Position numbers and translations under genes: made by a program | The notes under the pieces: generated by a model | Databases searched by the model: none | Told to the model about the DNA's origin: nothing | The model's input: the letters and a program-made list of their open reading frames with translations, nothing else | From: a virus | Taxonomy: Duplodnaviria > Heunggongvirae > Uroviricota > Caudoviricetes | Strand: one strand, 5' to 3' | IMG/VR virus record: IMGVR_UViG_2541047860_000002 | DNA length: 64,000 bases | In this document: positions 9,401 through 64,000 of the stretch, in pieces | How positions within the stretch are numbered: the first letter of the stretch is position 1 | How the letters are laid out: each line of letters starts with the position of its first letter

Positions 9401-9899
9401 AGGTTTAACGCCCGCACAACTGGCAGAGCGTAACGCTGAGTATGTAACGGAAATTTCCCGACTTGAGCAAGAACGCTCGGCGCTGGCGGCGGAGAATGCG
9501 GGAATAAAGTCTGCAATTCCAGAATCACGGGATATTGAGGATGACAATGACAATATGGATGACGTATCTCTCGCGGAAGATTTCGGGTTCAATCATGCAA
9601 TAGAACTGATGAGGAGACGGATTCCTGAAACTCCGGCCACCGACGCTTTCCTGGCTGAAGTACGTGCGGAGGCACGCAACGAGGGGATTAACTACACCGC
9701 AAGCCGTCTTGCTGCTGCGTTCAATCACGGATTTATCAATAAGTCTTTGCGTGAAGTTTTCGACGTTACACGCATGATTTTGTCAGCGAAAGAAGAGTTG
9801 GCTAATGAACCGCATCCGCTTGATGGCCTGTCCGGTGAATATGCGGAGAAATCCCTAGAAGAATGGGCGGAACAGATTCGCAAAGGAAGCAGCCAGTGA
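9390..9899 (+). CDS. Hypothetical acidic protein
   Basis: 169-aa ORF in co-directional early operon. Confidence 0.4.
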   Translation: MKSEGLTPAQLAERNAEYVTEISRLEQERSALAAENAGIKSAIPESRDIEDDNDNMDDVSLAEDFGFNHAIELMRRRIPETPATDAFLAEVRAEARNEGINYTASRLAAAFNHGFINKSLREVFDVTRMILSAKEELANEPHPLDGLSGEYAEKSLEEWAEQIRKGSSQ

Positions 9900-12482: not shown

Positions 12483-12486
12483 TGAG

Positions 12487-13179
12487 GTGGATCAAAAAAT
12501 GAAAGAACGCGGGATGATTTTTAACGATGAGATGGTCAGGGCCATCCTCGAAGGAAGGAAGACGCAGACTCGCCGACCTGTAAAAAATGTCAGGGCCGAT
12601 AACTGCCTGGTTATCCGTAAACCGACAAAGAAACGCAATGGTGTCTATACCCACGTTATGGATGCACCTGAACATGGTTTATGCCCGTTCGGTAACGTTG
12701 GTGATCGCATATGGGTCCGTGAGGCGTGGGCGATATTAGGCAATGAGGATGGTTGCAGTGTGGACTGGAACGACAACCTTTGTCGTGGCGATGAGAAGAA
12801 CGCAGCAAGGATTTATCGGGCCAGTTGTGAGCAAAAGCCGGGTGATTACGGCTTGTGGTCGATACCCGATGATGCCGACTGGAAACCTCACACTGTGAAT
12901 GAAAAATTTGATGGCGGGTGGCGTCCATCAATTCACATGCCGCGCTGGGCATCGCGCATTTTGCTGGAAATTACCGACGTGCGTGTGGAACGGCTGCGTG
13001 ATATGAGCGAGGCAGATGCTAAAGCAGAAGGCGCATCTCCGGCGATGTACAAAATTACGCCGCCGGAAGCTGTTTATCGCGTTGGTTTTGGTGATATCTG
13101 GCGCAGTATTTACGGGCAGGATAACTGGCTATCTAACCCGTGGGTATGGGTAATCGAGTTTAAGCGCATTCAGGAATAA
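12487..13179 (+). CDS. ASCH/PUA-like domain protein (tentative)
   Basis: N-terminal MIFNDEMVRAILEGRKTQTRR resembles the ASCH GxKxxExR region. Confidence 0.4.
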   Translation: MDQKMKERGMIFNDEMVRAILEGRKTQTRRPVKNVRADNCLVIRKPTKKRNGVYTHVMDAPEHGLCPFGNVGDRIWVREAWAILGNEDGCSVDWNDNLCRGDEKNAARIYRASCEQKPGDYGLWSIPDDADWKPHTVNEKFDGGWRPSIHMPRWASRILLEITDVRVERLRDMSEADAKAEGASPAMYKITPPEAVYRVGFGDIWRSIYGQDNWLSNPWVWVIEFKRIQE

Positions 13180-13262
13180 ACCGTGAGTATGCATCAAATC
13201 GTCAGTTTTTCAGGTGGACGAGCATCGGCCTGTCTCGTTCATCTGTTCGAAGAGGTAGTGGC

Positions 13263-13466
13263 ATGACAATCGTAAAAACCCATACCGGCACCGTGATCAC
13301 CAAAGACGGTCCGCAGGTAAAAAAACTGCACCAAACAGAGCGGATGTGGGTCGTCGGCAAAAATGAGTTTTACCACAAAGATACCGGACGCCGCCACTTT
13401 GCAGAAAATACGCGCCGTCGACTGCTGTTAGACACCATCAAGCCTATCGAGGTGAAGCATGTTTAA
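13263..13466 (+). CDS. Hypothetical protein
   Basis: 67-aa ORF. Confidence 0.35.
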   Translation: MTIVKTHTGTVITKDGPQVKKLHQTERMWVVGKNEFYHKDTGRRHFAENTRRRLLLDTIKPIEVKHV

Positions 13467-13698
13467 ACAGAACGAAAAAGCTATCGCTCAAATTGCTGAT
13501 TATATCCCGCGTGCGTGCCGGGGTATGCAGTTGCAGGAAGCCAAAGCGCGCCTGGAGAAAAAAATTGCGCTCTATATTGATGACGGCTGTGATGCTGCCG
13601 TTCTTAACGCGGCGTTCGCACCAGCTCTTAACAGTCATACTCGGGAGTCTTTTTTTTCGTGCATCGAAGCGCAACTCCGCAAAGGAGGCAACCAGTGA
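13459..13698 (+). CDS. Hypothetical protein
   Basis: 79-aa ORF. Confidence 0.35.
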   Translation: MFKQNEKAIAQIADYIPRACRGMQLQEAKARLEKKIALYIDDGCDAAVLNAAFAPALNSHTRESFFSCIEAQLRKGGNQ

Positions 13699-14420
13699 GC
13701 CAGATTGATTATCAAAAGCTTCGTGAAATCGCTGAAAAAACAAAAATTGCCGGTGAAGCACCTGTAATGCCTTTCGATCAGCGAATTAATGCGCTTAACG
13801 ATTTTATGAAGCACTTTTCGCCAGATATCGCGCTGGCATTGTTGGATGAACGGGAAAGAAACCAGCAATACATCAAACGCCGCGACCAGGAGAACGAGGA
13901 TATTGCGCTTACGGTTGGGAGGCTGCGCGTTGAGCTGGAAGGCAAAGACAGCAAAATAGCCAATCTTACCGCCGAACGCGATGCTCTTCGTGAAGGTGAG
14001 ATGGGCGACGCTAGGCATAGCAACACACGGGCCGCAGCTGATATCTACTTCCAACTGGTCGAGGAATGCGAAATTCCTGCTGGCGGATCTCTGGTCGAGT
14101 ACGTTGACGATATGCGCGAGAAGCTGGAAGCCGCAGAGAAGCGCATTGCAGAACTGGAAGCACGGGAAATAAAACCAGCCAAAGGCGAAGTTCTTGTCGT
14201 TGTCTCTGGTTTTACTGGTTGCGGGAAAAGCGCCATTGCCGGGGAAATAGAAATTGCGATGAAAGCTATTGGTGTGCCGGTTCAATGGACTAATGGCGAT
14301 GCAGAAAAGCATATGACCGGCGCTGACTGGCTGACAGCGATTGAGATGTACAAACCAACTGTGCGCATCGTGGAAGTTAATGTGCCACGCGCCGCTGGCA
14401 TTCGCATCAAAGGAGAGTGA
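13695..14420 (+). CDS. Hypothetical coiled-coil protein (Ea22-like style), start GTG 13695
   Basis: AAAGGAGG 6 nt upstream of GTG; coiled-coil middle. Confidence 0.4.
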   Translation: MSQIDYQKLREIAEKTKIAGEAPVMPFDQRINALNDFMKHFSPDIALALLDERERNQQYIKRRDQENEDIALTVGRLRVELEGKDSKIANLTAERDALREGEMGDARHSNTRAAADIYFQLVEECEIPAGGSLVEYVDDMREKLEAAEKRIAELEAREIKPAKGEVLVVVSGFTGCGKSAIAGEIEIAMKAIGVPVQWTNGDAEKHMTGADWLTAIEMYKPTVRIVEVNVPRAAGIRIKGE

Positions 14421-21117: not shown

Positions 21118-21458
21118 CGACGCCCCCTTGCAGGATAGCGACCTGCATTAGTATCCGGTGCAATAAAGCCGGTAGTGGGGCGAGTGAAAGCGAGATTAAT
21201 CTTCTCGACCATAGTGCGATAATTTTCCTGATAGTGGGCCAGGAGTTTTTCGGCGGCAATGATGGTTACTTTCCGGACGTAGCTTTCTGCTTCCTCCAGA
21301 TTTCGCCAGTTTTTTTCGAGGGTAAACACAGGGACGGCCTCAAGCCCGGTCATGATGCCGAACACAACGACAGCATGACTGTTCTTAACACCAGCGGCGA
21401 AGGTTACGGTGTAACCATCCACCTTAAAGCGTCTTGATTCCGTGATTTGACTCTGCAA
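21114..21458 (-). CDS. Hypothetical protein downstream of cre
   Basis: 114-aa ORF. Confidence 0.4.
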   Translation of the reverse strand: MQSQITESRRFKVDGYTVTFAAGVKNSHAVVVFGIMTGLEAVPVFTLEKNWRNLEEAESYVRKVTIIAAEKLLAHYQENYRTMVEKINLAFTRPTTGFIAPDTNAGRYPARGRR

Positions 21459-21515
21459 AGCACCCTCCGAAATAGGCGAGGGTACTTTACAGCAAAGATA
21501 ACAATCTAAAAAGAT

Positions 21516-21536
21516 GTGTTAGAAATTTAATTTATG
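21516..21536 (+). promoter_or_regulatory. Operator-like motif TGTGTTAGAAATTTAATTTAT (copy d)
   Basis: Overlaps cre stop; precedes downstream minus-strand genes. Confidence 0.4.
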
Positions 21537-22560
21537 AATCCATCAGGCGGCTATTAGCCCCCACAGACACGCCGCCACGGCGCAGATACCGCATAAGTGT
21601 TTCCGGTTTCTTCCAGGTTCCTTCCTGCATGATCTCCACCATAGACACCTGCTTTTCTGCCATATCGATAGCAGCCCCGACACGAGCACTATGCCCGGTC
21701 CACGTCCGGTATCTCCCCTTGTTTGGAGTGGCATCTCTTTTATTCAGCAACACCCAGGCGTCACTAAATATTTTCTCCATTGCAGGTGCAGTAAGGGGCG
21801 TTGTCGTAATCCTGGCCTTATTGCTACGGTGTATCGGCGGGAACAGCACCGCGTCAGGATGTTCACGAAGCCCGGAAACATCCAGCCAGTCATTCAGCAC
21901 AGCAGTAGTGCGACGGGAAAGCACCTTATCAAGCCCGGCGGCGGTCGTTATTGTCTTCGTGTGTGAAATATGTAGCGTGACAGTGTCACCTGTTTGGTCC
22001 AGATCTCCTACACGAATACGCGAGATTTCAGACATGCGCATCAGCGTATTGTATGCAACAAAGAGAAAAGCCCGGTTGCGCAGGTCCACCAGCCGTTCTG
22101 ACCTGGACAACAGGACGTCGAGCAGTTTCAGATCGTCCCACCGCAGCGGTATAGCCTGGCCTGTTCGTTCGCCTTTTTCCGTTGCCGCTTCACGCCGGAT
22201 GCGCCGCATAGCCAGAGAAACACTTTTATCATCCGAAAGTGGCGGAAGGCCACAATGCGAAAGCAGCATGTTCAGCATGGCGTAGTGCTTATCAATGGTG
22301 GTCGAAGCCAGATCAGCATCATGCAGCTGAAGAAAATACTCGCGGGCCATCTCTGGAGAGATCGGGAACCAGGCGAGCTGGCGAGCGTGACACCATCTCG
22401 CCCAGGAGTGAAACACTAACCGGAGATCGCGCAAAGTATTAGGCGCGTAAGCCCCCTGGTCATTCATGAACCGCATAAAGTTTTCTGCGGCCTCCTGGTA
22501 CTCTTTGCCAATGTTGCGCAGAAAACCACTGGAGCTGCCAGAGATAATTAATTCACTCAT
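21532..22560 (-). CDS. cre: Cre-like tyrosine recombinase (diverged from P1 Cre)
   Basis: Colinear similarity to P1 Cre incl. WFP...P..V..Y, VSLVMRRIR-like, NTL.R..EI.RIRV.D, SGHSARVGAA.DMA, E.MQ.G.W motifs. Confidence 0.9.
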   Translation of the reverse strand: MSELIISGSSSGFLRNIGKEYQEAAENFMRFMNDQGAYAPNTLRDLRLVFHSWARWCHARQLAWFPISPEMAREYFLQLHDADLASTTIDKHYAMLNMLLSHCGLPPLSDDKSVSLAMRRIRREAATEKGERTGQAIPLRWDDLKLLDVLLSRSERLVDLRNRAFLFVAYNTLMRMSEISRIRVGDLDQTGDTVTLHISHTKTITTAAGLDKVLSRRTTAVLNDWLDVSGLREHPDAVLFPPIHRSNKARITTTPLTAPAMEKIFSDAWVLLNKRDATPNKGRYRTWTGHSARVGAAIDMAEKQVSMVEIMQEGTWKKPETLMRYLRRGGVSVGANSRLMDS

Positions 22561-22711
22561 GAAACTATTTAACCTCTATATACAGATGACGCTACGCGAA
22601 AAATATAAAAATGACAGGGTAGCTATAAGTTAATTTTCAAGATTCAAACCTTTGATTCGAGGCACGTATTTTCAGTGATGTCAACACTGATCATCCACCC
22701 ATGATTATAGC

Positions 22712-22745
22712 TTAACTTTAAATAATGCCAATTATTTAAAGTTAT
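22712..22745. other. lox-like recombination site TTAACTTTAAATA-ATGCCAAT-TATTTAAAGTTAT
   Basis: 13-bp arms (12/13 inverted match) around an 8-bp asymmetric spacer, ~150 bp upstream of cre; outer ATAACTT-like arms as in loxP. Confidence 0.7.
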
Positions 22746-22927
22746 AAAGTGCCAATTTTTTTTAATCCATCATAGATTGATGATGACCAGTAACACGTTG
22801 CCTTCATGGTCTTTAATTTGCGAAGTGTGGTTTCTACGGTTGGTTTTCTAAAATTGATGACAAAAAATCACAGTTCGATCCTTTACTCACTCTGTTATTC
22901 GACATAAATTTGTCATAGTAATTTTAT

Positions 22928-22954: not shown

Positions 22955-23992
22955 ATGAGTAAGAAGTCGATCGAGAAAGAGTACAAACGGTTCCTGCAAA
23001 CCGCTGAACGGTGGAAAGAGCTGGTGGTCGCAAACTCTGTTTTCCATGATACCAGTTATGCTGGCGAGGAATTCCGCCATGTTGCATTAACGCATGACCA
23101 AAACATATTAGAAGAAGCTGAAAAATGTCTTGCTGAATGGAAAGCCTTCGTTGACATGTGCCGCGATTCCGACGGCAAAGCGTCGAACATTGTTGAGTCT
23201 GTATATTCTCCGATCCCATTCATCATTGAGGACACCAATCAAAGCACGCATGTTGTTGTGCAAAGCGCTACAACAACACGTACATTTACACGTGAACAAT
23301 TGCTCAAAAAATACGACAAAATCATAAAGAAAAGCCTGAAAAATAGGGTTTTTTCTCAAATCGTAGGCGCTCTTGAAGAAGAACAGCGCTTCTTTGAAGC
23401 TGAGCCTGAAGGCGAGATCTACCGGGCGCGTAAAGAGGCATATACAGATGTTGTGCTGACAACAAATATCGAAGGCAGCAATGCCCTTTCTCGCTTTAGA
23501 GTTGGCGCACATGGCGCATTGGTTTTCGCAAGACTACCGAAGACAACGATCCCCGTTGTCAATAATGTTGGTGAACGCCGGAGCATTACAATTTATTCTG
23601 GCGTCGAATCGGTACCTTGCAGCCTTCTCGGCGATTTTAACTTATATCGTGTTCGTGACCTGGAAAAACACCAGCCAAGCTACGTTGCGAAGTCGTACAT
23701 CTTAAGGAACATCGATATTCGCAATGAAAGCCTTAAGCAGAAATCCGCTAAGATGCTGGAGGATGCCGATCCGGCTATTCGCCATATCATTGAGCGTAAG
23801 ATACGTACATCACGTGAAGCAATGGCAAGGCTGGATAAAATGGATCTGGAATTGTTAGACGTAATGATGGCCTCTGGAGACGACCTGACCGGCATTAAAC
23901 TGAATGAAGCTCGTAAAAAATACGGCAAAGCAATCGAAGAACGTTACGGATACACATTCCCCCAAACGCAGTACGCCGCGAAGCTCTGGTAA
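22955..23992 (+). CDS. Hypothetical protein between lox and pacB (c1/coi region equivalent)
   Basis: 345-aa ORF preceded by operator copy e; function not recognisable from sequence. Confidence 0.45.
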   Translation: MSKKSIEKEYKRFLQTAERWKELVVANSVFHDTSYAGEEFRHVALTHDQNILEEAEKCLAEWKAFVDMCRDSDGKASNIVESVYSPIPFIIEDTNQSTHVVVQSATTTRTFTREQLLKKYDKIIKKSLKNRVFSQIVGALEEEQRFFEAEPEGEIYRARKEAYTDVVLTTNIEGSNALSRFRVGAHGALVFARLPKTTIPVVNNVGERRSITIYSGVESVPCSLLGDFNLYRVRDLEKHQPSYVAKSYILRNIDIRNESLKQKSAKMLEDADPAIRHIIERKIRTSREAMARLDKMDLELLDVMMASGDDLTGIKLNEARKKYGKAIEERYGYTFPQTQYAAKLW

Positions 23993-24019: not shown

Positions 24020-25528
24020 TTATATATCCAGATCAGGCATTTCGATATCCGCCAGAACCTGATCTCGGAAAGTTGCCATTTCGGCACCAATATCTTCATT
24101 AGCAGGCACATAGTCCACCAGCATAGTGAAGCAGTAGGTATCCCATCGGTCAGGCGATTTGATGTTTAGCTTTTGCCGCATGTGCTCTTTGCGCATCATC
24201 GCCATTTTCCCTTCTTCATTCAGTAAAAAGGGGATTTTTGACGCTTGCTCTGCCGTTTTAGGGTCACTGTCTATCCGCATACGCCCTGACTTTATGGCAT
24301 CACGCGCCATAATATTTGCGTAGGCACGCTGATTAACAAATCGCTCCCTGTCTTTGTTCGCAAACATGGGTTTTCCCCACCGAATACGTACCGGGTTCGC
24401 ACCACGACGCACCAACTGCGCACACGTATCAGAACCAAAACCATCAGCATCAACCGCGATTGTTATATTCGGGTATTTTTCCGGCGTACATTCGTTATAT
24501 ATGAAGTCAGCAAAGGCCAATGGGTCCATAGTGCCAGGCATCTCCATTACCTTAAAGTTAACAACGCGACGCTTATCCCTGTGACCAGATACCTTGCAGA
24601 TGTTGAGGACCGACTTATCTCGCCCATTACCAACGTCAGCCGTTGCCACCCATCCCCAGTTTTTCTCCAACAACACCTTGCGGCGAGCAGCGCGATCGCA
24701 TTCATCACGACCAAGCAAATAGCCGTTAATTTCTCGTGGGAACTGACCAAGCACCTTGACCATGTACTCAATAGAATCGCGCCCGCCATATTCCAGAAGC
24801 TTCTGCTTGATGAATTGTGGTGTGACGAACGGTGATTCTTCCGAGTTAAGAACAATTGCTGTCCAGATCCCTTTCGGGTTGTCTGGGGTTTTTGCTTGAG
24901 AATGGTGCGAATCGTAGAAATAACCACTTGGCCTTGTTGGCTGGGATAGCATCAACATCCGGTTATCTTCTTCAGTAAGAGCACCGGTCATTACGCCGAT
25001 CGCCTTATCAGATATACCAGATGCTTCGTCCAGAATTAGAAGCAAATGTGCCGCGTGTTCCCCCGCCAGCGCTTCTTCGTTGCCGAGTCGATAACCTTTG
25101 CAGAGAACTTCCCAAATCCCCTTACGGGAGCGCTCATAAAACATGGTGTCAGAGAGGACAAAATAGGTCTGCAACCACCCATGACGCTTAACTGCATTCG
25201 CCCAATACTGTTTAACGTATTTGAATACGCCTGTTTTTACCTGGCCTATCTTGTTAGCAACAATGATGACACGGGCATCGGGGAACAGGATCATAAAAAT
25301 CAACAGCAACATCGCGGTAAGGGACGACTTCCCCGTTCCGTGTCCGGACGTGACGGTCGTCCTACTCCCCGTTTCCTGCACTGACTGAATGATCTGCTGC
25401 TGCTGGTGGGAGGGGAACATCCCAAAAATATCGACAACAGCCTGGGTAAAGTTGTAGCGGTATTTGATTACCATATCGCGCCAGCGTGGATCGCTGGTGA
25501 CGCATTTAATCTTGCGCCCGCCAGCCAT
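24020..25528 (-). CDS. pacB: Terminase large subunit (PacB-like)
   Basis: Walker A SGHGTGKSS, Walker B LLILDEASG; size and position after pacA. Confidence 0.8.
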   Translation of the reverse strand: MAGGRKIKCVTSDPRWRDMVIKYRYNFTQAVVDIFGMFPSHQQQQIIQSVQETGSRTTVTSGHGTGKSSLTAMLLLIFMILFPDARVIIVANKIGQVKTGVFKYVKQYWANAVKRHGWLQTYFVLSDTMFYERSRKGIWEVLCKGYRLGNEEALAGEHAAHLLLILDEASGISDKAIGVMTGALTEEDNRMLMLSQPTRPSGYFYDSHHSQAKTPDNPKGIWTAIVLNSEESPFVTPQFIKQKLLEYGGRDSIEYMVKVLGQFPREINGYLLGRDECDRAARRKVLLEKNWGWVATADVGNGRDKSVLNICKVSGHRDKRRVVNFKVMEMPGTMDPLAFADFIYNECTPEKYPNITIAVDADGFGSDTCAQLVRRGANPVRIRWGKPMFANKDRERFVNQRAYANIMARDAIKSGRMRIDSDPKTAEQASKIPFLLNEEGKMAMMRKEHMRQKLNIKSPDRWDTYCFTMLVDYVPANEDIGAEMATFRDQVLADIEMPDLDI

Positions 25529-26892
25529 TAATCATCCTCCGGCGGTTCTATCGCGATATCATCATCTCCGGCGTCATACCCTGCATCAGATGCATCATAA
25601 TCACCGTAAATTTCAGCCGTTGCCGAAGGGTCAATATCCAGCTCTTCGTCGTTGGCCTCGAATTCTCCAGCTTTACGCTCGCCATTGCGGTCGTAATCTC
25701 CGCACCCCAATTCTTCAACAATGGTTGCCACATCCGCCCGGCGCTCTGCCAGCCATTGCGGATGGTTAGCCTGAAGCGTTGCAAACTCCCTTGCCTCTTT
25801 GTCCAGCTGTTCATCATCAACATCATTGACGTCAGAAACAGGTGGTTCGAGAAGAGTGATAGCTTTCGCCGCGCGCGCCGCGAGGATAGCCGGGACGCTG
25901 ACCCCCTGGCGCTCGATGTATTCAGCAACACCGATATCATCCAGTTCCTCGCGCTCACGCATACGTATAGCGGCGGCGATAACTCTGGCAGCGCGTGCGT
26001 CAGCGCCAATGCGATATTCAATCTCTTTGCCACGCTGTTCGGCCTGTAGGCGTGCTAATTCGAGTTTTTCTCTGGCCTCAGCCTCTTTGAATGCTTGCTG
26101 GCGAGCGCTCTGACGAAGCTTTTCATCCCCCTGTCGCAGCTTTTGTTCGGACTGATATATAGCTGCCAACCTACTGATAAAATCATTCATGTAGTAGGCC
26201 GCGTCACTGATTAGACCGAGAAGGCGCTGCCCAGGGTGCATTCCTTCTGGCTCTTTATCGCCCAAGGCGTCTATTTCCGCCTGTAGACGTTCGGCCTCCT
26301 GATCAACAATGCTTTGATACTGAAGTGCGCGCTCTTGCGCCATTTGAATTGCTAACCGCAGGTGTTCTTCTGCGCCGTTCTTCATCATGTCGCGAGCCAC
26401 ATTCGTAGTGGGCAATGTGGCACGTTGCACAGCACCGCCAGGGATCATTGCTGAAGATCCCTCAATTTTTGGGGCGCTTTTATCTTCTTCGGGGATCATT
26501 TTCGCCATTTTTTCGCGCAATGATCTCCTGACAGATTCTTTTATCTCATTGTTATTATTTGCATTATTTTCATGATCCGAAGTTTTCTTTCTCGGCATAC
26601 TTCGGAAAGAACCTGCGCCCTGCGAATTGTCAATTTCTGTAAATTTTGTTTTTTCTGCACCCTCTTCCAGCTTTTTTGTTGCTCTTCCCGCCCGTTTTTT
26701 TTCAGGTGATTTGGTGCTTTTTTTTGTTGTCTTTACCTGCGACCGCACCTCATTTTTTTTCATATTGAGATGCTTTCTGGCTGTATTGAAGCTAAGGCCA
26801 TGCTCCTCACAGTATTCCTTTACAGTGATCCCTTTTTCTTCACGCAACGCTATAAAGCGGGCGCGGTGCTCCTCCCAATTAACCAGACTCAT
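25528..26892 (-). CDS. pacA: Terminase small/pac-recognition subunit (PacA-like)
   Basis: N-terminal HTH; cluster of 5 GATC sites inside the 5' third; directly upstream of pacB. Confidence 0.7.
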   Translation of the reverse strand: MSLVNWEEHRARFIALREEKGITVKEYCEEHGLSFNTARKHLNMKKNEVRSQVKTTKKSTKSPEKKRAGRATKKLEEGAEKTKFTEIDNSQGAGSFRSMPRKKTSDHENNANNNNEIKESVRRSLREKMAKMIPEEDKSAPKIEGSSAMIPGGAVQRATLPTTNVARDMMKNGAEEHLRLAIQMAQERALQYQSIVDQEAERLQAEIDALGDKEPEGMHPGQRLLGLISDAAYYMNDFISRLAAIYQSEQKLRQGDEKLRQSARQQAFKEAEAREKLELARLQAEQRGKEIEYRIGADARAARVIAAAIRMREREELDDIGVAEYIERQGVSVPAILAARAAKAITLLEPPVSDVNDVDDEQLDKEAREFATLQANHPQWLAERRADVATIVEELGCGDYDRNGERKAGEFEANDEELDIDPSATAEIYGDYDASDAGYDAGDDDIAIEPPEDD

Positions 26893-29028: not shown

Positions 29029-29041
29029 GTTATCTATTTGG

Positions 29042-29869
29042 TTATTTCACCGGAACAAACGGAACAGCGGTATTACTGGTCATATACTGCGGTAGCGTTC
29101 CGTTCCATTTGTTGATCGCTTCCAACTCCATAACGCCGGGGTTCTGGCGCAGAGCCTCACCGCGTAAACGAATGGCATCAGCTTCAGCCTGGGCTTTTGT
29201 GCGAATGGCATCGGCCTGTCCAGCAGCTTCTGCGCGCAGCATGTTGGCTTCTGCTTCGCGTTGCTTGACTTCCTGCTCGCGTTGCAGAGTTTTCTGGTTC
29301 GCCGTGACTTTGGCATTAATGCTGTCGATAACGGTTGGCGGGTACTCCGGCTTGCCCACATATGAGAGGCTCATTACCTGAATACCGATGGGCGTCATTT
29401 CTTCCTGAATGTCTTTAAGGGCTGCATCAAGCAATTCAGATTTGCCACCGTCGATAAATTTGTCGGTGGTCATTTTGCTGGCTAACCGGTTCAGAGCATC
29501 TGCAACCTTCTGGCGTAGATCGGTATCAGTAATATCATCTACACCTTTGCGATAGGTCTGAAATACCGTTGTGACTTTTGCTGGATCAACCTTGTAGGCT
29601 ACGCCGATGTGGTAACCAATGGTTGTTCCGTCGCTCATCTGGAAGCTGAACGGCTCATCGTATGTCTTCATTTGCTTAAAGGTCGGGAAGATATAAACTT
29701 CAGTATTCAAGCCTGTCCAGTAGCGACCAACGCCAACTACTTCACCGATACCTTTATCATCCCCCAGCTTATTTACTTTGATCCCTACGTTACCTGGCTC
29801 TACCCGATCGCATCCGGTCAGACATAAAGAACCAAAAATAATCGCTGCACTAATCAACGTTTTTTTCAT
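29042..29869 (-). CDS. plp: SPFH/band-7 domain lipoprotein (P1 Plp-like)
   Basis: Lipobox ...SLCLTGC; prohibitin-like core and coiled-coil tail; located inside tRNA cluster as in P1. Confidence 0.75.
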   Translation of the reverse strand: MKKTLISAAIIFGSLCLTGCDRVEPGNVGIKVNKLGDDKGIGEVVGVGRYWTGLNTEVYIFPTFKQMKTYDEPFSFQMSDGTTIGYHIGVAYKVDPAKVTTVFQTYRKGVDDITDTDLRQKVADALNRLASKMTTDKFIDGGKSELLDAALKDIQEEMTPIGIQVMSLSYVGKPEYPPTVIDSINAKVTANQKTLQREQEVKQREAEANMLRAEAAGQADAIRTKAQAEADAIRLRGEALRQNPGVMELEAINKWNGTLPQYMTSNTAVPFVPVK

Positions 29870-30086
29870 TAATCAATTTCCTGGTTTTTTCACGAAAAAA
29901 GACTACTGCAAAAGCCGGGTAAATGAGCGCGAGAAGGACTCCCAACAATACAAGTATTGTGCTGTCAGATGAGATCATATTTGGCAAAAGCCAAACATAC
30001 AGAACCAGTGACACAATCAAACAGAGGACGACATAAATATATAACCGCACCCATAGCGTTCGACATTTGTTCGGATTGTTCTGCAT
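29850..30086 (-). CDS. Small membrane protein upstream of plp
   Basis: 78-aa ORF with two hydrophobic helices. Confidence 0.45.
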   Translation of the reverse strand: MQNNPNKCRTLWVRLYIYVVLCLIVSLVLYVWLLPNMISSDSTILVLLGVLLALIYPAFAVVFFREKTRKLINEKNVD

Positions 30087-30349
30087 CCTCTCACTCCATT
30101 ATTTACCGAATAAAAAAGCTGCGGTGCCTGGTGCCTCCAGGTGACGTTAACCAGTTAACAATTAACGCCGGGATGTTTGACTTAACCACTAAGGAGGATT
30201 GTTTTAACTGTTCCGCGTGCGCTTAGCCGCATTCACCGCAATGGTAAGAGCACTTGGCTGGCTGGGCGGCGATGACGCCTGTACGCATTTGGTGATCCGG
30301 TTCTGCTTCCGGCATTCGCTTAATTAGCCAAATACTCTTAACGTTGCAC

Positions 30350-43226: not shown

Positions 43227-43930
43227 TCACCTCCCCAACCGATCACCTGGAATTGCCCCATTTTTGGGTGATACCAACGTTTTCCTCGGTGTTCAGCCTC
43301 CGACATCATCCGGTTAAAAGCATTCATGAAGGGAGATAAGGCGACGATGGAACGACGCGACAATACCCCCTCTGGAGTTAAAAACTCATGTGTATCTGTG
43401 GGAATCCGGTAAGCGTTGACAAGGTTGCGGCATTTGGCTTCGGTCAGGCCGCATTTCGCCGCCAGCTGGCGGTAGCCAATGTAACCTTCCGGCATGTTGC
43501 CCTTCTTGATTTGCTCGACGGTTTCTACCACCTGGCTAACCTTTGACTCAACAACATGAAGCCGCTTTTGCTGCTGAACTGCATTTGCAGCCATTGCGGC
43601 GATCATCTCTATTTCGGTCAACGGCTGGCGTACTTGTTCTTCCAGTTCGCGCCAGCGGTCCACCAGCCGGGCGGTGAATTCCGGAGAGAGCTGCGCAACG
43701 ACAATGATACTGTCACGCTTGCCTTGTTCGCCTTCGAAGACGTAGTGTGAATTTTTAACTTTAAATCCTAAGTTATTGATATTTTCGGAAACCTCCATTG
43801 GAGGAAGTGGAATAACACCTGATTTACTCAAGCGTTCAATAGTGCGTTTAACGTTATCCGGGCGACTTCCCACCAGCTCCGCGATCTCAATGCTGGTCAT
43901 TGATGGCTTTTCAAGAATGCAGATTTCCAT
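43223..43930 (-). CDS. Rha-family phage regulatory protein (antirepressor-like), copy 2
   Basis: Paralog of 5644-6585 over ~230 aa. Confidence 0.7.
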   Translation of the reverse strand: MEICILEKPSMTSIEIAELVGSRPDNVKRTIERLSKSGVIPLPPMEVSENINNLGFKVKNSHYVFEGEQGKRDSIIVVAQLSPEFTARLVDRWRELEEQVRQPLTEIEMIAAMAANAVQQQKRLHVVESKVSQVVETVEQIKKGNMPEGYIGYRQLAAKCGLTEAKCRNLVNAYRIPTDTHEFLTPEGVLSRRSIVALSPFMNAFNRMMSEAEHRGKRWYHPKMGQFQVIGWGGE

Positions 43931-57000: not shown

Positions 57001-58011
57001 TTAAACGCTCGCTACATTATACCAGGTGCCATTTATATACTTTTGAACGGGTCTGTAATAAACGCCCGCTATATTATCGGCAGAGTTGGACCCTGTATCC
57101 TGAACATTAATACCAGACAATACATGACCTGACGGGCACTGGAAATTCCATGTTTGCCAGTTGTTTACTCCATAATATTGCTGTGAACCAAGTCGAACAT
57201 CTTTCACATAACGGGAATCAAAGTTACCGTAATCCGAGGGATTAACACGCCCTGTAATATTTATGGTTTTATTACTTTGAATGCTGCCGGAGACAAAGCG
57301 CATAACATGGACGTTATTAGCATAAACGTCCAGATTACCGTCGCCATTTTGTTTAAAGCCCGTGTCATTATCACCCAAAACAATCGAGTTACCGCCAAGA
57401 GCACTGGATGTTCCGATACCCAATGCACCATTCAATTGACCGCCAGATAATGACAACGCCCCAACCTCAGCAGCAGTCGGTTTAATGTGCGAACTGTAAA
57501 TTACATATACAGTTCCATCTGTCAGGCCTGTTGGTTTATTCGCTGTATAAGTTGGTGATGTATGAATTTGTACAGTTGCATCCTTTGTATAATCCCACTG
57601 GATATTAACACCTGTGGCGTAATTACCTATTTTTACATAAATGTCATAGGTATCACCGGATGTATTCACCCATGCAAAATTAGTAAATCCAACCGAGGTC
57701 CGTCGCCATAATGCACCAGTAAGACCTTTTGGATTTCCATTTCCCGCACGAAGAACAAGTTCAGATATACCAGCCTGCATAGGGGAGTTAACATTATATC
57801 CAGCACCACCAATCAGACTTATGTAAACCACGGAACTGGCTTGTGGCATTGTTACAGTTGCCAGTTTGAACCATCCAGCACCACCACTAAAAGACATGGT
57901 TGTTGAATTTGTTGTGCCGATATTACGCAGGAATAGTTTTTTATCGGGAATATCTGCGCCGTTCTGGTTTTTCTGTAATGCGCCAGAAGCCTGATTTACC
58001 GTTTCCTGCAA
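57001..58011 (-). CDS. Alternative tail-fibre variable cassette (Sv'-type), no ATG start
   Basis: Shares ...[11 protein letters not shown]... junction with the plus-strand cassette; TAA stop 3 codons upstream inside the crossover site. Confidence 0.65.
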
Positions 58012-58028
58012 ACCGAGGTTTTAGATAA
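58003..58028. other. gix-like crossover site TTCCTGCAAACC-GA-GGTTTTAGATAA (right)
   Basis: 24/26 identical to the Mu gixL sequence as recalled. Confidence 0.75.
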
Positions 58029-58082
58029 TGGCCGTTTCTGACCTGCATGGCATGATTTACGCTTTTGGACGGGAGATTCAGC

Positions 58083-58670
58083 GTGCTGATTGGCTATGTA
58101 AGGGTATCAACAAATGACCAGAATACAGACCTGCAACGAAACGCTCTTGTTTGTGCAGGATGTGAACAAATATTTGAAGATAAATTAAGCGGGACAAAGA
58201 CAGACCGACCGGGATTAAAACGCGCTTTAAAGCGCCTTCAAAAAGGTGACACGCTGGTTGTCTGGAAACTGGATCGCCTCGGGCGAAGCATGAAACATCT
58301 GATTTCTCTCGTCGGGGAACTACGGGAGCGAGGGATTAATTTTCGCAGTCTGACCGACAGCATAGATACATCTTCTCCAATGGGACGTTTTTTCTTCCAC
58401 GTGATGGGTGCCCTGGCTGAAATGGAACGTGAATTAATTGTTGAACGTACACTGGCCGGACTGGCAGCAGCGCGCGCACGGGGGCGCACAGGCGGACGTC
58501 GCCCGAAGCTGACAAAAGAACAGCATGAGCAAATAGCAAGGCTGATTAAAAACGGTCACGACAGAAAACAACTGGCAATAATTTACGGCATTGGTACATC
58601 GACGATTTATCGTTACCACCCCGCAGGAGAATCAAGCGGAACAATAGAGAAGAGTCAGAAAACAAAATAA
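58083..58670 (+). CDS. Serine recombinase DNA invertase (Cin/Gin/Hin family), copy 2
   Basis: (M)LIGYVRVSTNDQNTDLQ...; GTG start 58083 with GGGAG upstream. Confidence 0.9.
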   Translation: MLIGYVRVSTNDQNTDLQRNALVCAGCEQIFEDKLSGTKTDRPGLKRALKRLQKGDTLVVWKLDRLGRSMKHLISLVGELRERGINFRSLTDSIDTSSPMGRFFFHVMGALAEMERELIVERTLAGLAAARARGRTGGRRPKLTKEQHEQIARLIKNGHDRKQLAIIYGIGTSTIYRYHPAGESSGTIEKSQKTK

Positions 58671-58700
58671 CCGCTAATCTGACCATTAGCGGTTTTTGTG
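58670..58700. terminator. Bidirectional terminator (ACCGCTAAT-ctgacc-ATTAGCGGT + T5)
   Basis: Direct reading between invertase 2 and tail gene U. Confidence 0.55.
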
Positions 58701-58705
58701 TTAAA

Positions 58706-59200
58706 TCAGAACAGCCCTTTAACTGAACTGGCCGCGCTGTTAAGAGATGATGTCACCTTATCTTTGAAGCCGGACAGCATATCGCTGAACGATGAGGATT
58801 GCAGGCGCTCCCGCAAATCCTCATCACAGCGTTCAAGGGTCAGTGAAAATTCTATCTTTTTCGCCTTACCGTAGCGATCAAACTCGGAACGGGTCGTATT
58901 CGTTCCGGTCAGGACATACATGCCGTAAATCTGCCCGACGCCATCAATCAAAGGCCAGGGTCGTCCTGTATACGCCTGCGTGGTCAGCAGCGACAGCGAC
59001 ACTTCGCCACCTGTAATTTCAGGATAAAGCACACCAGAAAGAACGATGCGATCATCACCTGCACCGATATACTGCCAGCTTGCTGAACGGTTAACGCGTT
59101 CATTTTTCACATGCCGCCAGCTTTTGTTTTGCTGTAACTGCTGATGCGGCAGCGTGCGCAGCTCAAAAACAAACATGCCGTAGATCATCATCATGGCCAT
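58706..59200 (-). CDS. Tail protein (P2 gpU-like position)
   Basis: 164 aa immediately downstream of tape measure. Confidence 0.5.
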   Translation of the reverse strand: MAMMMIYGMFVFELRTLPHQQLQQNKSWRHVKNERVNRSASWQYIGAGDDRIVLSGVLYPEITGGEVSLSLLTTQAYTGRPWPLIDGVGQIYGMYVLTGTNTTRSEFDRYGKAKKIEFSLTLERCDEDLRERLQSSSFSDMLSGFKDKVTSSLNSAASSVKGLF

Positions 59201-59206
59201 GACTCC

Positions 59207-62014
59207 TCAATCTTTATCGTAAAAACTGCCACGCCCGGCACGGGCGCGCCGTTCCATTTCTGCCCTGACCATTTCACCGACCAGTTTCGCCAGTTCGCGG
59301 GGATTCTGTGTAACAACGTTATGCAGATGAACATGAATTTCACCGCCAAATCCGGAGGCAACAGGCTCCCGGTTACGGGAAGTTGCAGGAACTGATGCCA
59401 CTGGCGATCGTATGGCCTCCGCCACCGGGCGGGAGCTGGCCGCAACAACAGGGACCAGCGCCGGAGGCAGCGGAGCCGGAACCACGGGTGTGATATTAAT
59501 TGCGGGGGCAGGCTTACTGACCTGCGCAATCTTCCGCTCCTGCCACTCCCCACGAACAGCAAGTGCGCGGGGCAGGTTCTTAAAGACAATATCGCCGGGG
59601 CCAATGCGTTTTTTCGTCTCATCAACCAGCTTACCTGTGTTATCAGCAATTTTGCTGAGTCTGCGTAGCGTCCCGGTATTGCTGTCTGTGAGCGGTTTGT
59701 TGTCTTTGGGTTTATCACCTCCGGTGCCATTGCCATTTTCCACAGGCTTCGGCGGATTGATTTTCGCCAGGTCCCCCTGAAGCAAGGCAACCTTGTCCTG
59801 AAGAATGGCCGCACGCTGTGCGTCTTCGATTTTCTTGCGCGCCCTTTCCGCTTCATCCGGAAGGACGCCAAGTTTTTCAAGTATCCACGCCAGCGTATCC
59901 AGTAGCATTTTTGCAGGTGTCAGAACAAGTTGTAACGCACCGCCAAGAACGTTACCGAATATCTCGCCAGCACTGGTACATTTATCCAGAGTTTCCTTGC
60001 TGGATTCCATCGGTGACAGCAGCGATTTAAACCAGTTAAACACCTGGCTGATCCCGCTTCCGATTGCGTCAAAAACAGGACCAAACCGTTCAAAGGTTTC
60101 GCGCAACGGGGTCAGCCTTTCCATAATCCCGCTGAACACCCCGGCAAAAAATGCCCTGATGGGATCCCAGTATTTCCAGATAAGAACGGCAGCTCCGGCA
60201 AGCGCAGCCACGATAAGACCAACCGGACTGAACAACGCCCCGATGGCGCCTCCCAGTAAAGAAACGGAACCCGTCACCATTCCCCACAGCGCAGGCAACG
60301 CCCTGACGACATTCATTGACCGGGTAAGAATGTCAAAACCAAGACGCAGGGTGGCCAGCTTCCCGTAAAGCACCCCAATAACCAGCGACAACGAGCCAAT
60401 CGTTGCAGTCATTGCCAACAACGCACCGCCTGCTATCAGTAGCTGGCGCGTCAGTACCGGATGGGCCTGCGCCAGCGAGGTGATTTTTTCAAGCACCCGC
60501 GTGAGCCACTGCGTGACAGAACGCAGCGGACCGTCAACCAGATCACTGATGCGAATACGAAGACCTTCCCATGCGCTGTCGAGATTTTTCAGGTCCCCAT
60601 CAAGATTATCGGCCATTACTTTTGCAACGCGATCGGACTCTCCCCTTGCCCCCTGCAATTCTCTGGTCAGTTTTTGCAGCTCTCCTGAACCAGCCGCCGC
60701 AACAAGCGTCTGCAAACCAACGAACGCCTCTTCTCCGGCGATGTCCTTGAAGAAGGAAACCTGGTCCACCTGTCCGTATTTTTGTGTCGCCTTATAGAGA
60801 TCAAGCAGCACATCCTCCATCGGGCGCATTTTGCCTCTGGCGTCAGCAACTGACACCCCCAGCTCTTTCAGTGCATCAGCCGCAGCTTTTGGCGGTGATG
60901 CAAGGCGGGACAGACTTGCGCGCATGGCCGTACCAGCATCGCTTCCACGAAGACCATTATTGGCAAGCATCCCGGCCATAGCTGCCGCTTCTTCAAGACT
61001 GATACCAAGTTTTGCGGCAACCGGACCGGTATACTTCATGGTTTCGCCCAGCGCGCGTAAATCAGTATTGGTCCGGGTGAATGCCGCTGTCAGCGTATCG
61101 CCAACCCGGTCCATTTGATCGGCTGTCAGGTTGAACTGTGTGAGGATATTGGAGCCTATATCAGCCGTCTCGCCGAGTTCGACGCCACCTGCCAGCGCCA
61201 TATTAAGAACACCGGGCAATGCGGCCTGAATGGCCTGCGGAGTAAAACCAGCCATTGCCAGAAAGCTCTGCCCACTGGCGGCATCACTCGCAGTAAACTG
61301 TGTTTCAGAGCCAAGTTTTAACGCCTGCTCACGCAGCGCCTTAAACTGCGGGCTGTTTTTGTCGATTCGCGTCAGCGCCTGAACGCGGGACATCTCTTTG
61401 CCGAACCCGATCGCGGGCTGCAAAAAACGCCCGGCAGCATAGCCGCCCGCCGCTGCCGCACCAATTGCCAGCGCACCACCTGTTTTCAGTTTTCCCGCGG
61501 TTTCCTGCGCGCGCGAATACCGCTCACGCGCCCGCGTTACACGCGCAAGCGCCTGCCGTTCGCGTTCAAGCTGGTTGTTGTACTGTTCGGTGCGTCTGAT
61601 GGCCTGCTGGATGGTGTTATCGCTGCCTGTCAGGGAAATGCCGTGGCGTTTCAGTTCTCCGCCAATCTCCCGCATTTTCTGAATTTCCCGTGTGCGCGAT
61701 TCATTCAGGCGTTCAAGCCGGGTGCTTAACTGCTGCATCAGCTTTTGTTGTTTTTCGCTGAGCACTGTACCCGTGCGTTGTAACTGATTAAGGGCGTTAA
61801 GCTGGCGTCGTGCTTTCACGATGCCCGCATCCGCTTTACTGACAGCGTCACGGGCGCGCTCAAATGAACGCGCCTGACGCTCGAGATTTTTGATCGCCCC
61901 CTGCGTTCGCTGGATGGAGTCACCAAACTGCCCCATCAGGCGGCGGGCGTTTTCGGCAGGCCGGGTCAGCCTGTCAACGGCGCTGAAAGCGACCCGGATA
62001 TCAAGAGTCTTCAT
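59207..62014 (-). CDS. Tail tape-measure protein
   Basis: 935 aa, coiled-coil N-terminus, Gly/Ala-rich hydrophobic middle; follows E/E' frameshift pair. Confidence 0.85.
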   Translation of the reverse strand: MKTLDIRVAFSAVDRLTRPAENARRLMGQFGDSIQRTQGAIKNLERQARSFERARDAVSKADAGIVKARRQLNALNQLQRTGTVLSEKQQKLMQQLSTRLERLNESRTREIQKMREIGGELKRHGISLTGSDNTIQQAIRRTEQYNNQLERERQALARVTRARERYSRAQETAGKLKTGGALAIGAAAAGGYAAGRFLQPAIGFGKEMSRVQALTRIDKNSPQFKALREQALKLGSETQFTASDAASGQSFLAMAGFTPQAIQAALPGVLNMALAGGVELGETADIGSNILTQFNLTADQMDRVGDTLTAAFTRTNTDLRALGETMKYTGPVAAKLGISLEEAAAMAGMLANNGLRGSDAGTAMRASLSRLASPPKAAADALKELGVSVADARGKMRPMEDVLLDLYKATQKYGQVDQVSFFKDIAGEEAFVGLQTLVAAAGSGELQKLTRELQGARGESDRVAKVMADNLDGDLKNLDSAWEGLRIRISDLVDGPLRSVTQWLTRVLEKITSLAQAHPVLTRQLLIAGGALLAMTATIGSLSLVIGVLYGKLATLRLGFDILTRSMNVVRALPALWGMVTGSVSLLGGAIGALFSPVGLIVAALAGAAVLIWKYWDPIRAFFAGVFSGIMERLTPLRETFERFGPVFDAIGSGISQVFNWFKSLLSPMESSKETLDKCTSAGEIFGNVLGGALQLVLTPAKMLLDTLAWILEKLGVLPDEAERARKKIEDAQRAAILQDKVALLQGDLAKINPPKPVENGNGTGGDKPKDNKPLTDSNTGTLRRLSKIADNTGKLVDETKKRIGPGDIVFKNLPRALAVRGEWQERKIAQVSKPAPAINITPVVPAPLPPALVPVVAASSRPVAEAIRSPVASVPATSRNREPVASGFGGEIHVHLHNVVTQNPRELAKLVGEMVRAEMERRARAGRGSFYDKD

Positions 62015-62269
62015 TATCTACATTCCCGCTGCGAAGTGCCGCCCGCTCACGCCAGCTAACCACTTCGCCGGGCGTCATCATGAAGATTTCGGCGGGCGAC
62101 CAGTTAAAAATGGCGGCGATATCTGCCACCAGATCTTCGATGTGCTCAAAGCACACCAGGGTGATTACGCTGCCGTCTCCTGCACGCTCTTCGCGCCAGA
62201 GTCTGGCTCGCTCATAAAATTTACAGCCACAGCGCACAACTGAATAAAATCGCGTGACGACATTTTTTT
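62001..62269 (-). CDS. E' extension of tail assembly chaperone, reached by programmed -1 frameshift on A7 (62263-62269)
   Basis: -1 frame open from 62267 to 62001 overlapping the 3' end of E; slippery AAAAAAA in IKKM codons. Confidence 0.5.
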
Positions 62270-62539
62270 AATCATCACTTCATCCAGTCGTGGCGAGGTC
62301 ACGCGAGGCAACAGCGTGAACATGGTATCCGCTTTCAGATTCAGCACATCAGACAGCGACAGACCACGCAGGGATCCAGCCTGTTCAATAGCCCCGGTGA
62401 TCTCCACATACGTGATTTTTTCGCCACCACGCTCAATTGGTCGGGTCAGTTTTACGCCACGTTCGACAGCCATATCCTCACCTGCCGTCACATCATCCGC
62501 CACGGTGTTATTCCGGGTTTCAGTATCGATGTCTTTCAT
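62165..62539 (-). CDS. Tail assembly chaperone (P2 gpE-like)
   Basis: 124 aa between tube and tape measure with overlapping -1 frame. Confidence 0.6.
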   Translation of the reverse strand: MKDIDTETRNNTVADDVTAGEDMAVERGVKLTRPIERGGEKITYVEITGAIEQAGSLRGLSLSDVLNLKADTMFTLLPRVTSPRLDEVMIKKMSSRDFIQLCAVAVNFMSEPDSGAKSVQETAA

Positions 62540-62594
62540 CAGTTGTCTCCTTTTCAGTCAGAGGCGACGCACTGCGCCGCCTGCATATTACTTA

Positions 62595-63107
62595 TCAGCC
62601 AAGCCCGAGCGCGGAACGGATGCGATCGGGCACAATGTCCTTGCCGTCCTTCCGGTAAATGAAGTTCAGCAGGTCAATCTCCCACAACGGGCGATCGTTA
62701 ACACTCAGCTTGTAGTAGGTGTTTTTAATGGCGTAAGTGTGTGATGTGGCTTCGCCCTGTTTGGCTTCCCCCATATCAATTTCCGTCACACGTCCGCGCA
62801 TTTCGACTTCATACAGGTCGCTTTCTGCATCGGTGTAGTATTCACCCGCAAAACGCAGCAGCGTGCCGTCAATCGTGCCGCCATACTTAAGGAACAGCTC
62901 ACGAACTGCGCCCCCCATGACAAAGCTCGCATCAAGCGCGGAGTCGTCCAGACCGAGATCAATACTTACCGCACCCATCATGCCACCACCCCGGTAGCTG
63001 TCGGTTTTGCGCGTCAGCTTAGGCAGAGTGACGGACGTCACCTTACCCACTTCGTTTTCACCATCCACAAACAGCGTAAAAAAGCGAAGATGTTTTGGTA
63101 CAGCCAT
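62595..63107 (-). CDS. Tail tube protein (P2 FII-like position)
   Basis: 170 aa between sheath and E. Confidence 0.55.
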   Translation of the reverse strand: MAVPKHLRFFTLFVDGENEVGKVTSVTLPKLTRKTDSYRGGGMMGAVSIDLGLDDSALDASFVMGGAVRELFLKYGGTIDGTLLRFAGEYYTDAESDLYEVEMRGRVTEIDMGEAKQGEATSHTYAIKNTYYKLSVNDRPLWEIDLLNFIYRKDGKDIVPDRIRSALGLG

Positions 63108-64000
63108 CAGGCACCTCCCAGCACCGCAAATGCGGGACCAAAGAATTCATCAGTAAACGACTGGTAAAGCTCCATGTCTTCCAGCGGGGGAACAGGCGTA
63201 TATTTGTAGCGAATACGCACGCGCCCCTGACGTAAATTCGTGGTGCCGTTATCCACCACGTCATACCAGCACGACGCCCCAATCAGTTTCCCGGCAGTAA
63301 CCAGTGAATCCAGTTTTGCCCTGATGGCACTGATAACATCTTTCACGTTCGCAGGCGTCAGTGGACTGTCGATGGTTTCAAACTGCGCTTCCGCAATTGA
63401 ATCAGCCAGCACCTGTGCGGTTCGGGTATACACCTCAAAGATGTAGGCGTTCGTTTCCGGTGTGCGGTTGCCCCAGAAGCGGAACCCATTGCGACGAATA
63501 ATGGTCGTGATTTCTTTGTTGTTGAGGCTGTTGGCATCGCTGTCTTCGGCCTGCAACGACCAGAACACATGCCTCGACATCCCCAGCACATTTTTAACCG
63601 GAACGTTGGACAGTGATTTGTGCCAGCCCTGCTCATGGTCAATGTACGCACGAAGGCCGCACGCATAGGCAGGCGCGGGGAACGTTTCGTTTTTGCCACT
63701 TTTCGGGTTGTAGGCAATGAAGTCCGGCCATAAGAGCATCACCTCACGTTCGTTGAATTTCTGGCGGTAGGTAATCGCCTCAGCCATCGTGTTACAGCCG
63801 TAACATGAGGCATACACAAACGCGCGCAGTTTACCTGCAATCACGCACAGGGATTTTGTTACAGCCTCCGTGTCCAGCTCCGGCGCGGCCAGAATACGCG
63901 GACGGTATCCGATGCTTTCATCCTGCTCTGCAACAAGCAGCGCATACATCCCCGTATAGCTGCCGTCAGATTCAGAGCCACCGATAACCAGTTGATCCTG
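63107..64000 (-). CDS. Tail sheath protein, 5' end beyond window
   Basis: Frame open to window edge; precedes tube gene. Confidence 0.55.
   Translation of the reverse strand, partial: QDQLVIGGSESDGSYTGMYALLVAEQDESIGYRPRILAAPELDTEAVTKSLCVIAGKLRAFVYASCYGCNTMAEAITYRQKFNEREVMLLWPDFIAYNPKSGKNETFPAPAYACGLRAYIDHEQGWHKSLSNVPVKNVLGMSRHVFWSLQAEDSDANSLNNKEITTIIRRNGFRFWGNRTPETNAYIFEVYTRTAQVLADSIAEAQFETIDSPLTPANVKDVISAIRAKLDSLVTAGKLIGASCWYDVVDNGTTNLRQGRVRIRYKYTPVPPLEDMELYQSFTDEFFGPAFAVLGGA

Follow-up and report, generated by a model that had tools for sequence, protein, structure and literature searches.

dre-rox, a site-specific recombination module in a D6-like plasmid prophage

Results

Layout of the locus and its host element

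The stretch of DNA analysed here (hereafter, the window) comprises 64,000 nucleotides of the Caudoviricetes record IMGVR_UViG_2541047860_000002 of IMG/VR. It contains a recombinase gene on the minus strand, a palindromic site upstream of this gene and, on the other side of the site, a repressor gene on the plus strand. The features are as follows:

21532..22560, minus strand: dre, gene of Dre, a tyrosine site-specific recombinase (342 aa, ATG at 22560, natural G11S allele)
22561..22712, minus strand: leader or regulatory spacer from rox to the dre ATG (152 nt)
22704..22731, minus strand: candidate sigma-70 promoter into dre (predicted; 11 of 12 consensus positions)
22713..22744, no strand assigned: rox, 32-bp Dre recombination site, exact match to the published rox TAACTTTAAATAATGCCAATTATTTAAAGTTA
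22713-22726: rox arm TAACTTTAAATAAT (14 bp, perfect repeat with the other arm)
22727-22730: rox spacer GCCA (4 bp, asymmetric)
22731-22744: rox arm ATTATTTAAAGTTA (14 bp, perfect repeat with the other arm)
22955..23992, plus strand: c1, prophage repressor, immC region (ORF; colinear with a D6 gene that bears the annotation 'c1, phage repressor protein')

BLASTN comparison clearly indicates the relatedness of the window to Escherichia phage D6; the window is colinear with D6 positions 68773–91159 and then 1–34852, with an identity of 92–99% and a few unmatched segments. The parts without a D6 match at blastn sensitivity (57046–64000, 12485–14123, 29030–30119 and 9503–9883) probably represent variable modules, either for tail fibres or of an accessory kind. 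The 57–64 kb stretch comes after a region colinear with the cin/tail-fibre inversion segment of D6, where the similarity is fragmentary (68–86% identity). E. coli and Salmonella plasmids of about 92 kb are 99% identical to the window over 25 kb. In a megablast search, the region 21400–22900 was 96% identical to D6 among the phage records, with matches to the features 'dre: tyrosine recombinase' and the rox crossover region, and 99.8% identical to, e.g., CP092511.1. The gene order dut, orf3, orf2, dre, rox, c1, pacB, pacA is the same in the window and in D6. Judged by its sequence, the window is a D6-like phage-plasmid of roughly 92 kb, one of the P1-like elements of E. coli and Salmonella; D6-like plasmid prophages are a described group (PMC6799933).

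The locus is carried mainly by plasmids. Among 5426 complete E. coli genomes, 117 contained it, at 119 places in all (median, one per genome), of which 116 were on plasmids; 143 PLSDB plasmids contain it as well. In four of the complete E. coli genomes, a plasmid carries the exact 1214-bp interval with 100% identity.

The dre gene and its product

The predicted product of the gene and the Dre protein of phage D6 (AAV84949.1) align without gaps and are identical at 341 of 342 positions, the sole change being G11S. A gene of the Salmonella Thompson plasmid CP092511.1 matches the window dre completely (100%), at the level of both DNA and protein, and the G11S allele has already been deposited (e.g., WBX21445.1 on CP092511.1). 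The preliminary description, which was made from the letters alone, regarded the ORF as colinear with P1 Cre but much diverged, and the alignments bear this out: Cre chains among the PDB sequences align colinearly with residues 22–341 of the window protein (E = 5e-69), and the identity to P1 Cre is 40–41%. A search of the PDB sequences for a structure of Dre itself returned only chains of Cre and Cre variants.

All seven catalytic residues of Cre, including the tyrosine nucleophile, are kept in the window protein; R173, E176, K201, H289, R292, W315 and Y324 of Cre correspond to R175, E178, K202, H290, R293, W316 and Y325, respectively, and five of these aligned residues are the active-site positions given for Dre (R175, H290, R293, W316 and Y325; PMC4777119). 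The Pfam domain Phage_integrase (PF00589) was matched with 62.6 bits (cut-off 27.1), and the N-terminal SAM-like DNA-binding domain PF02899 with 21.6 bits, slightly below its cut-off of 22.3 bits. By these similarities, the window protein belongs to the Cre subfamily of tyrosine site-specific recombinases.

The coding sequences of the window and D6 differ by 37 nucleotides, which affect 36 codons, 35 of them synonymously. The only replacement, G11S, is a conservative change in the N-terminal tail, before the Cre-aligned region, which begins at residue 22; natural Dre homologues also vary near residue 11 (S9G/N, G12M). Because of this location and of the variation among homologues, a changed specificity through G11S seems unlikely, and, since residue 11 lies outside the Cre-aligned region, the window allele would be expected to recombine rox but not loxP, as D6 Dre does.

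The rox site and the leader

Upstream of dre, the repeat finder detected two perfect 14-nt inverted arms with 4 nt between them, i.e., a 14-4-14 arrangement. The resulting 32 bp are identical at 32 of 32 positions to the feature 'region of crossover (rox) site for Dre recombinase' of the D6 record AY753669.1, and they also match the sequence in PMC3082901, where it is printed as the reverse complement; in the literature, rox is described as a 32-bp site with 14-4-14 architecture (PMC3082901, PMC12331466, PMC4777119). The cleavage positions of Dre in rox are inferred, not mapped (PMC4777119). Chance does not account for the palindrome: even with up to three mismatches allowed, its 32-bp core was located a single time in the 64-kb window, and 100 shuffles gave no match. 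The same search of the window, with up to three mismatches, found no second full rox site. A half-rox with two mismatches lies at 43756, probably by chance.

The preliminary description placed a lox-like site about 150 bp upstream of the gene, and a 34-mer is indeed found there, at 22712–22745, 152 bp upstream of the ATG at 22560. Its division of this site into 34 bp with 13-8-13 architecture holds in part; a palindrome with an asymmetric spacer is present, but the perfect repeat is 14-4-14 and measures 32 bp. The proposed 13-mers, TTAACTTTAAATA and TATTTAAAGTTAT, pair in only 12 of 13 positions, because their outermost bases (22712 and 22745) are both T and so do not pair; in D6, position 22712, which directly adjoins rox, is C instead of T, and this position therefore lies outside the conserved site. 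At the same time, the proposed 8-bp spacer ATGCCAAT is equal to 'positions 1-8' of Chuang et al., which correspond in function to the spacer of loxP (PMC4777119), so that 13-8-13 is a defensible functional parse, though not one that reflects the symmetry of the sequence. The statement that arms and spacer are unlike those of loxP agrees with the 14-4-14 organisation and the different arms of the site.

The distance from rox to the ATG of dre is 152 nt in all eight loci compared (8/8). Between the window and D6, the 152-nt leader contains 12 differences and the adjacent rox none; together with the synonymous character of 35 of the 36 changed codons, this points to purifying selection on both partners, dre and rox, as read from the substitution pattern in the window. 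A GATC (Dam) site is located in the leader at 22689–22692, about 20 nt from rox, and is found also in the related loci L007, L008 and L009; D6 has GAAC at this place. Dam sites occur in the regulatory region of P1 cre as well.

Variation of rox and the mosaic boundary

In three plasmids whose Dre proteins are 90–93% identical and whose leaders are 67–97% identical, rox is the same at 32 of 32 positions. The Shigella flexneri locus L008 (NZ_CP058787.1) has one substitution in an arm (ATTATcTAAAGTTA), and the adjoining Dre is the same as D6 Dre; the S. dysenteriae locus L004 (NZ_CP026816.1) contains a rox with four changes, two of them in the spacer (TAgCTTTAAATAAT-aCtA-ATTATcTAAAGTTA). The variant site of L004 (CP026816.1) reads in full TAGCTTTAAATAATACTAATTATCTAAAGTTA, and its cognate Dre is 89% identical. 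In both loci, the site lies 152 nt upstream of dre. The appearance of new target sites as a general pattern in dre homologues of 78–89% DNA identity was considered and rejected, because rox is unchanged in three of the four homologues examined, the sole variant being that of the S. dysenteriae plasmid.

A comparison of loci L004, L005, L006 and L008 with the window indicated an abrupt loss of similarity at rox. The identity is 88–100% in rox and falls to 35–49% over the next 60 nt on the c1 side; on the dre side of rox, the same four loci are 67–97% identical to the window. Towards c1, the identity is partly regained in L004, L006 and L008 (73–81%), but not in L005 (window 22745–22865, some 185–305 nt from the dre ATG), and many megablast matches stop at window position 22748. 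In view of this collapse of homology at its edge, rox is a sharp mosaic boundary on the c1 side. Dre/rox may take part in exchange between co-resident phage-plasmids.

A candidate promoter overlapping rox

The predicted promoter directed into dre consists of the −35 element TTGGCA (22731–22726), which spans the spacer of rox, and the −10 element TATAAT (22709–22704), which is situated 3 nt outside rox; the two are 16 nt apart. It is the sole site with at least 11 of 12 consensus positions in the 64-kb window on both strands; shuffling of the dre–c1 intergenic region yielded any site with at least 11 of 12 positions in 146 of 5000 shuffles. The −10 element is kept in D6, L006, L007, L008 and L009. 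Since the predicted −35 element lies inside the rox spacer, this arrangement suggests autoregulation of dre, in which Dre bound at rox would repress its own gene. A literature search for a rox site acting as a cryptic promoter found nothing relevant.

Discussion

Identification of the locus

The identity of the recombinase and its target with Dre/rox is shown directly in the present study, and nothing was found against it. Dre/rox of Escherichia phage D6 (AY753669.1, MF356679.1) is the same system, with the same protein at 341 of 342 positions, the same rox at 32 of 32 positions and the same distance of 152 nt; the neighbours of dre-rox in D6 also match those in the window, with orf2, orf3 and dut on one side and c1, pacB and pacA on the other. 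The differences from D6 amount to G11S, the 37 nucleotide differences in the coding sequence and the 12 in the leader, and the module is carried by a natural D6-like plasmid instead of the D6 type strain. The locus is almost certainly the dre-rox module for site-specific recombination in a D6-like plasmid prophage. The preliminary description contained a correct reading but missed that the pair is the known Dre/rox of D6. The percent-identity comparison with Cre-like recombinases that it had called for gave 341/342 with D6 Dre and 40–41% with Cre, and the orthogonality to Cre/loxP that it considered possible has already been demonstrated by experiment for Dre/rox (PMC3082901, PMC12331466), having reportedly been established some two decades ago.

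The similarity to P1 Cre/loxP includes the fold family, the catalytic residues, the position of a palindrome beside the recombinase gene and facing the immC/c1-pac region, and the presumed roles in dimer resolution and cyclisation (PMC2409434). The locus works in the manner of Cre/loxP but does not belong to Cre/loxP proper; the protein identity is about 41%, the site is 14-4-14 with other arms, whereas loxP is 13-8-13, and cross-recombination is absent. The upstream regions are different too. In P1, the interval from lox to cre is occupied by cra and by three mapped cre promoters, 104–424 nt from the lox centre, and the annotated cre promoters are outside loxP; in the window, 152 nt separate rox from the ATG, and the strongest candidate for a promoter overlaps rox itself. 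Other Cre-type recombinases with lox-like palindromic targets are VCre/VloxP, SCre/SloxP, Vika/vox, Nigri/nox and Panto/pox. Panto/pox is the one known system that cross-reacts with Dre/rox; Panto, from Pantoea sp., is 52% identical to Dre and recombines rox, and Dre recombines pox (PMC4957104).

Alternative explanations

A protein with about 41% identity to Cre and a site with arms and spacer unlike those of loxP might be taken for a new recombinase/site pair, orthogonal to Cre/loxP and to all known systems. The chance of this is negligible; the protein is 99.7% identical to Dre, the site is rox at 32 of 32 positions, the same allele and site have already been deposited in several plasmids, and the sequence identity with Dre/rox refutes such novelty. 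It is also highly improbable, if a shade less so, that the module is a decayed or domesticated remnant with a recombinase gene or site that is non-functional in this plasmid lineage. Some D6-like plasmids are defective prophages (PMC6799933), and the rox of the S. dysenteriae relative L004 carries four substitutions; in the window, however, the ORF is intact, the catalytic residues are complete, the ratio of synonymous to non-synonymous codons relative to D6 is 35:1 and rox is unchanged.

A further explanation would make the palindrome mainly an operator or promoter of dre or of the c1 region, which is divergent, with recombination as a secondary function. The sigma-70-like promoter with 11 of 12 consensus positions, which has its −35 element in the rox spacer and is directed into dre, speaks in its favour. 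Against it, recombination of this exact rox sequence by Dre is experimentally documented (PMC4777119, PMC12331466, PMC3082901), and a promoter role, for which there is a consensus match only, would supplement recombination rather than supplant it; we consider this explanation unlikely, though less so than the two others.

Proposed mechanism and roles of the Dre/rox module

As a recombination module, Dre/rox can be supposed to operate as follows. Each 14-bp arm of rox would be bound by one Dre monomer, and two rox sites would synapse in a Dre tetramer; Tyr325, assisted by R175, E178, K202, H290, R293 and W316, would cleave and exchange one pair of strands, which gives a Holliday junction, before the other pair follows. 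Accessory factors would be unnecessary, and the directionality of rox would come from the asymmetric GCCA spacer. With a single copy of rox per element, Dre would resolve phage-plasmid dimers to monomers and so help the element to be inherited stably; judging from P1, Dre probably has a second task, the circularisation of infecting DNA that is terminally redundant. We infer the catalytic mechanism from Cre, and dimer resolution and cyclisation in the D6-like element from P1 Cre/loxP, which keeps the P1 plasmid prophage monomeric (PMC2409434). Recombination of rox by Dre and its heterospecificity are experimental results from published work on a protein that differs from that of the window only at G11; in E. 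coli, no cross-reaction of Cre, Dre, VCre and SCre was seen with the sites loxP, rox, VloxP and SloxM1 (PMC3082901), and strict orthogonality of Dre and Cre was found in B. subtilis (PMC12331466).

A search of pacA (25528–26892) for a cluster of Dam-methylatable pac hexamers of the P1 type (TGATCA/G) revealed one TGATCA only, at 26300. The P1 geometry that promotes cyclisation by Cre thus lends no support here to the cyclisation role, and the pac site of the window element may differ from that of P1.

Significance

Dre/rox of phage D6 was reportedly characterised by Sauer and McDermott in 2004, and it is now used routinely, together with Cre/loxP, as a tool of genome engineering in mice, zebrafish, mammalian cells and bacteria. 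The pair is already known, so the finding itself is without novelty and has no discovery value, although a real recombinase/target pair could be recognised from the raw sequence at first reading. What the locus documents is a natural G11S allele of Dre, a rox that stays the same beside diverged Dre homologues and a possible promoter embedded in rox; these points may be of small interest to those who engineer or study Dre.

Perhaps rox provides the −35 element of the main dre promoter, with autorepression by Dre, and, separately, Dre/rox is engaged in exchange between co-resident phage-plasmids; we put this forward tentatively and hold it to be rather doubtful. If true, the module would possess a built-in autoregulatory loop that is absent from P1 Cre/loxP, and in engineered constructs rox could supply one half of a bacterial promoter.
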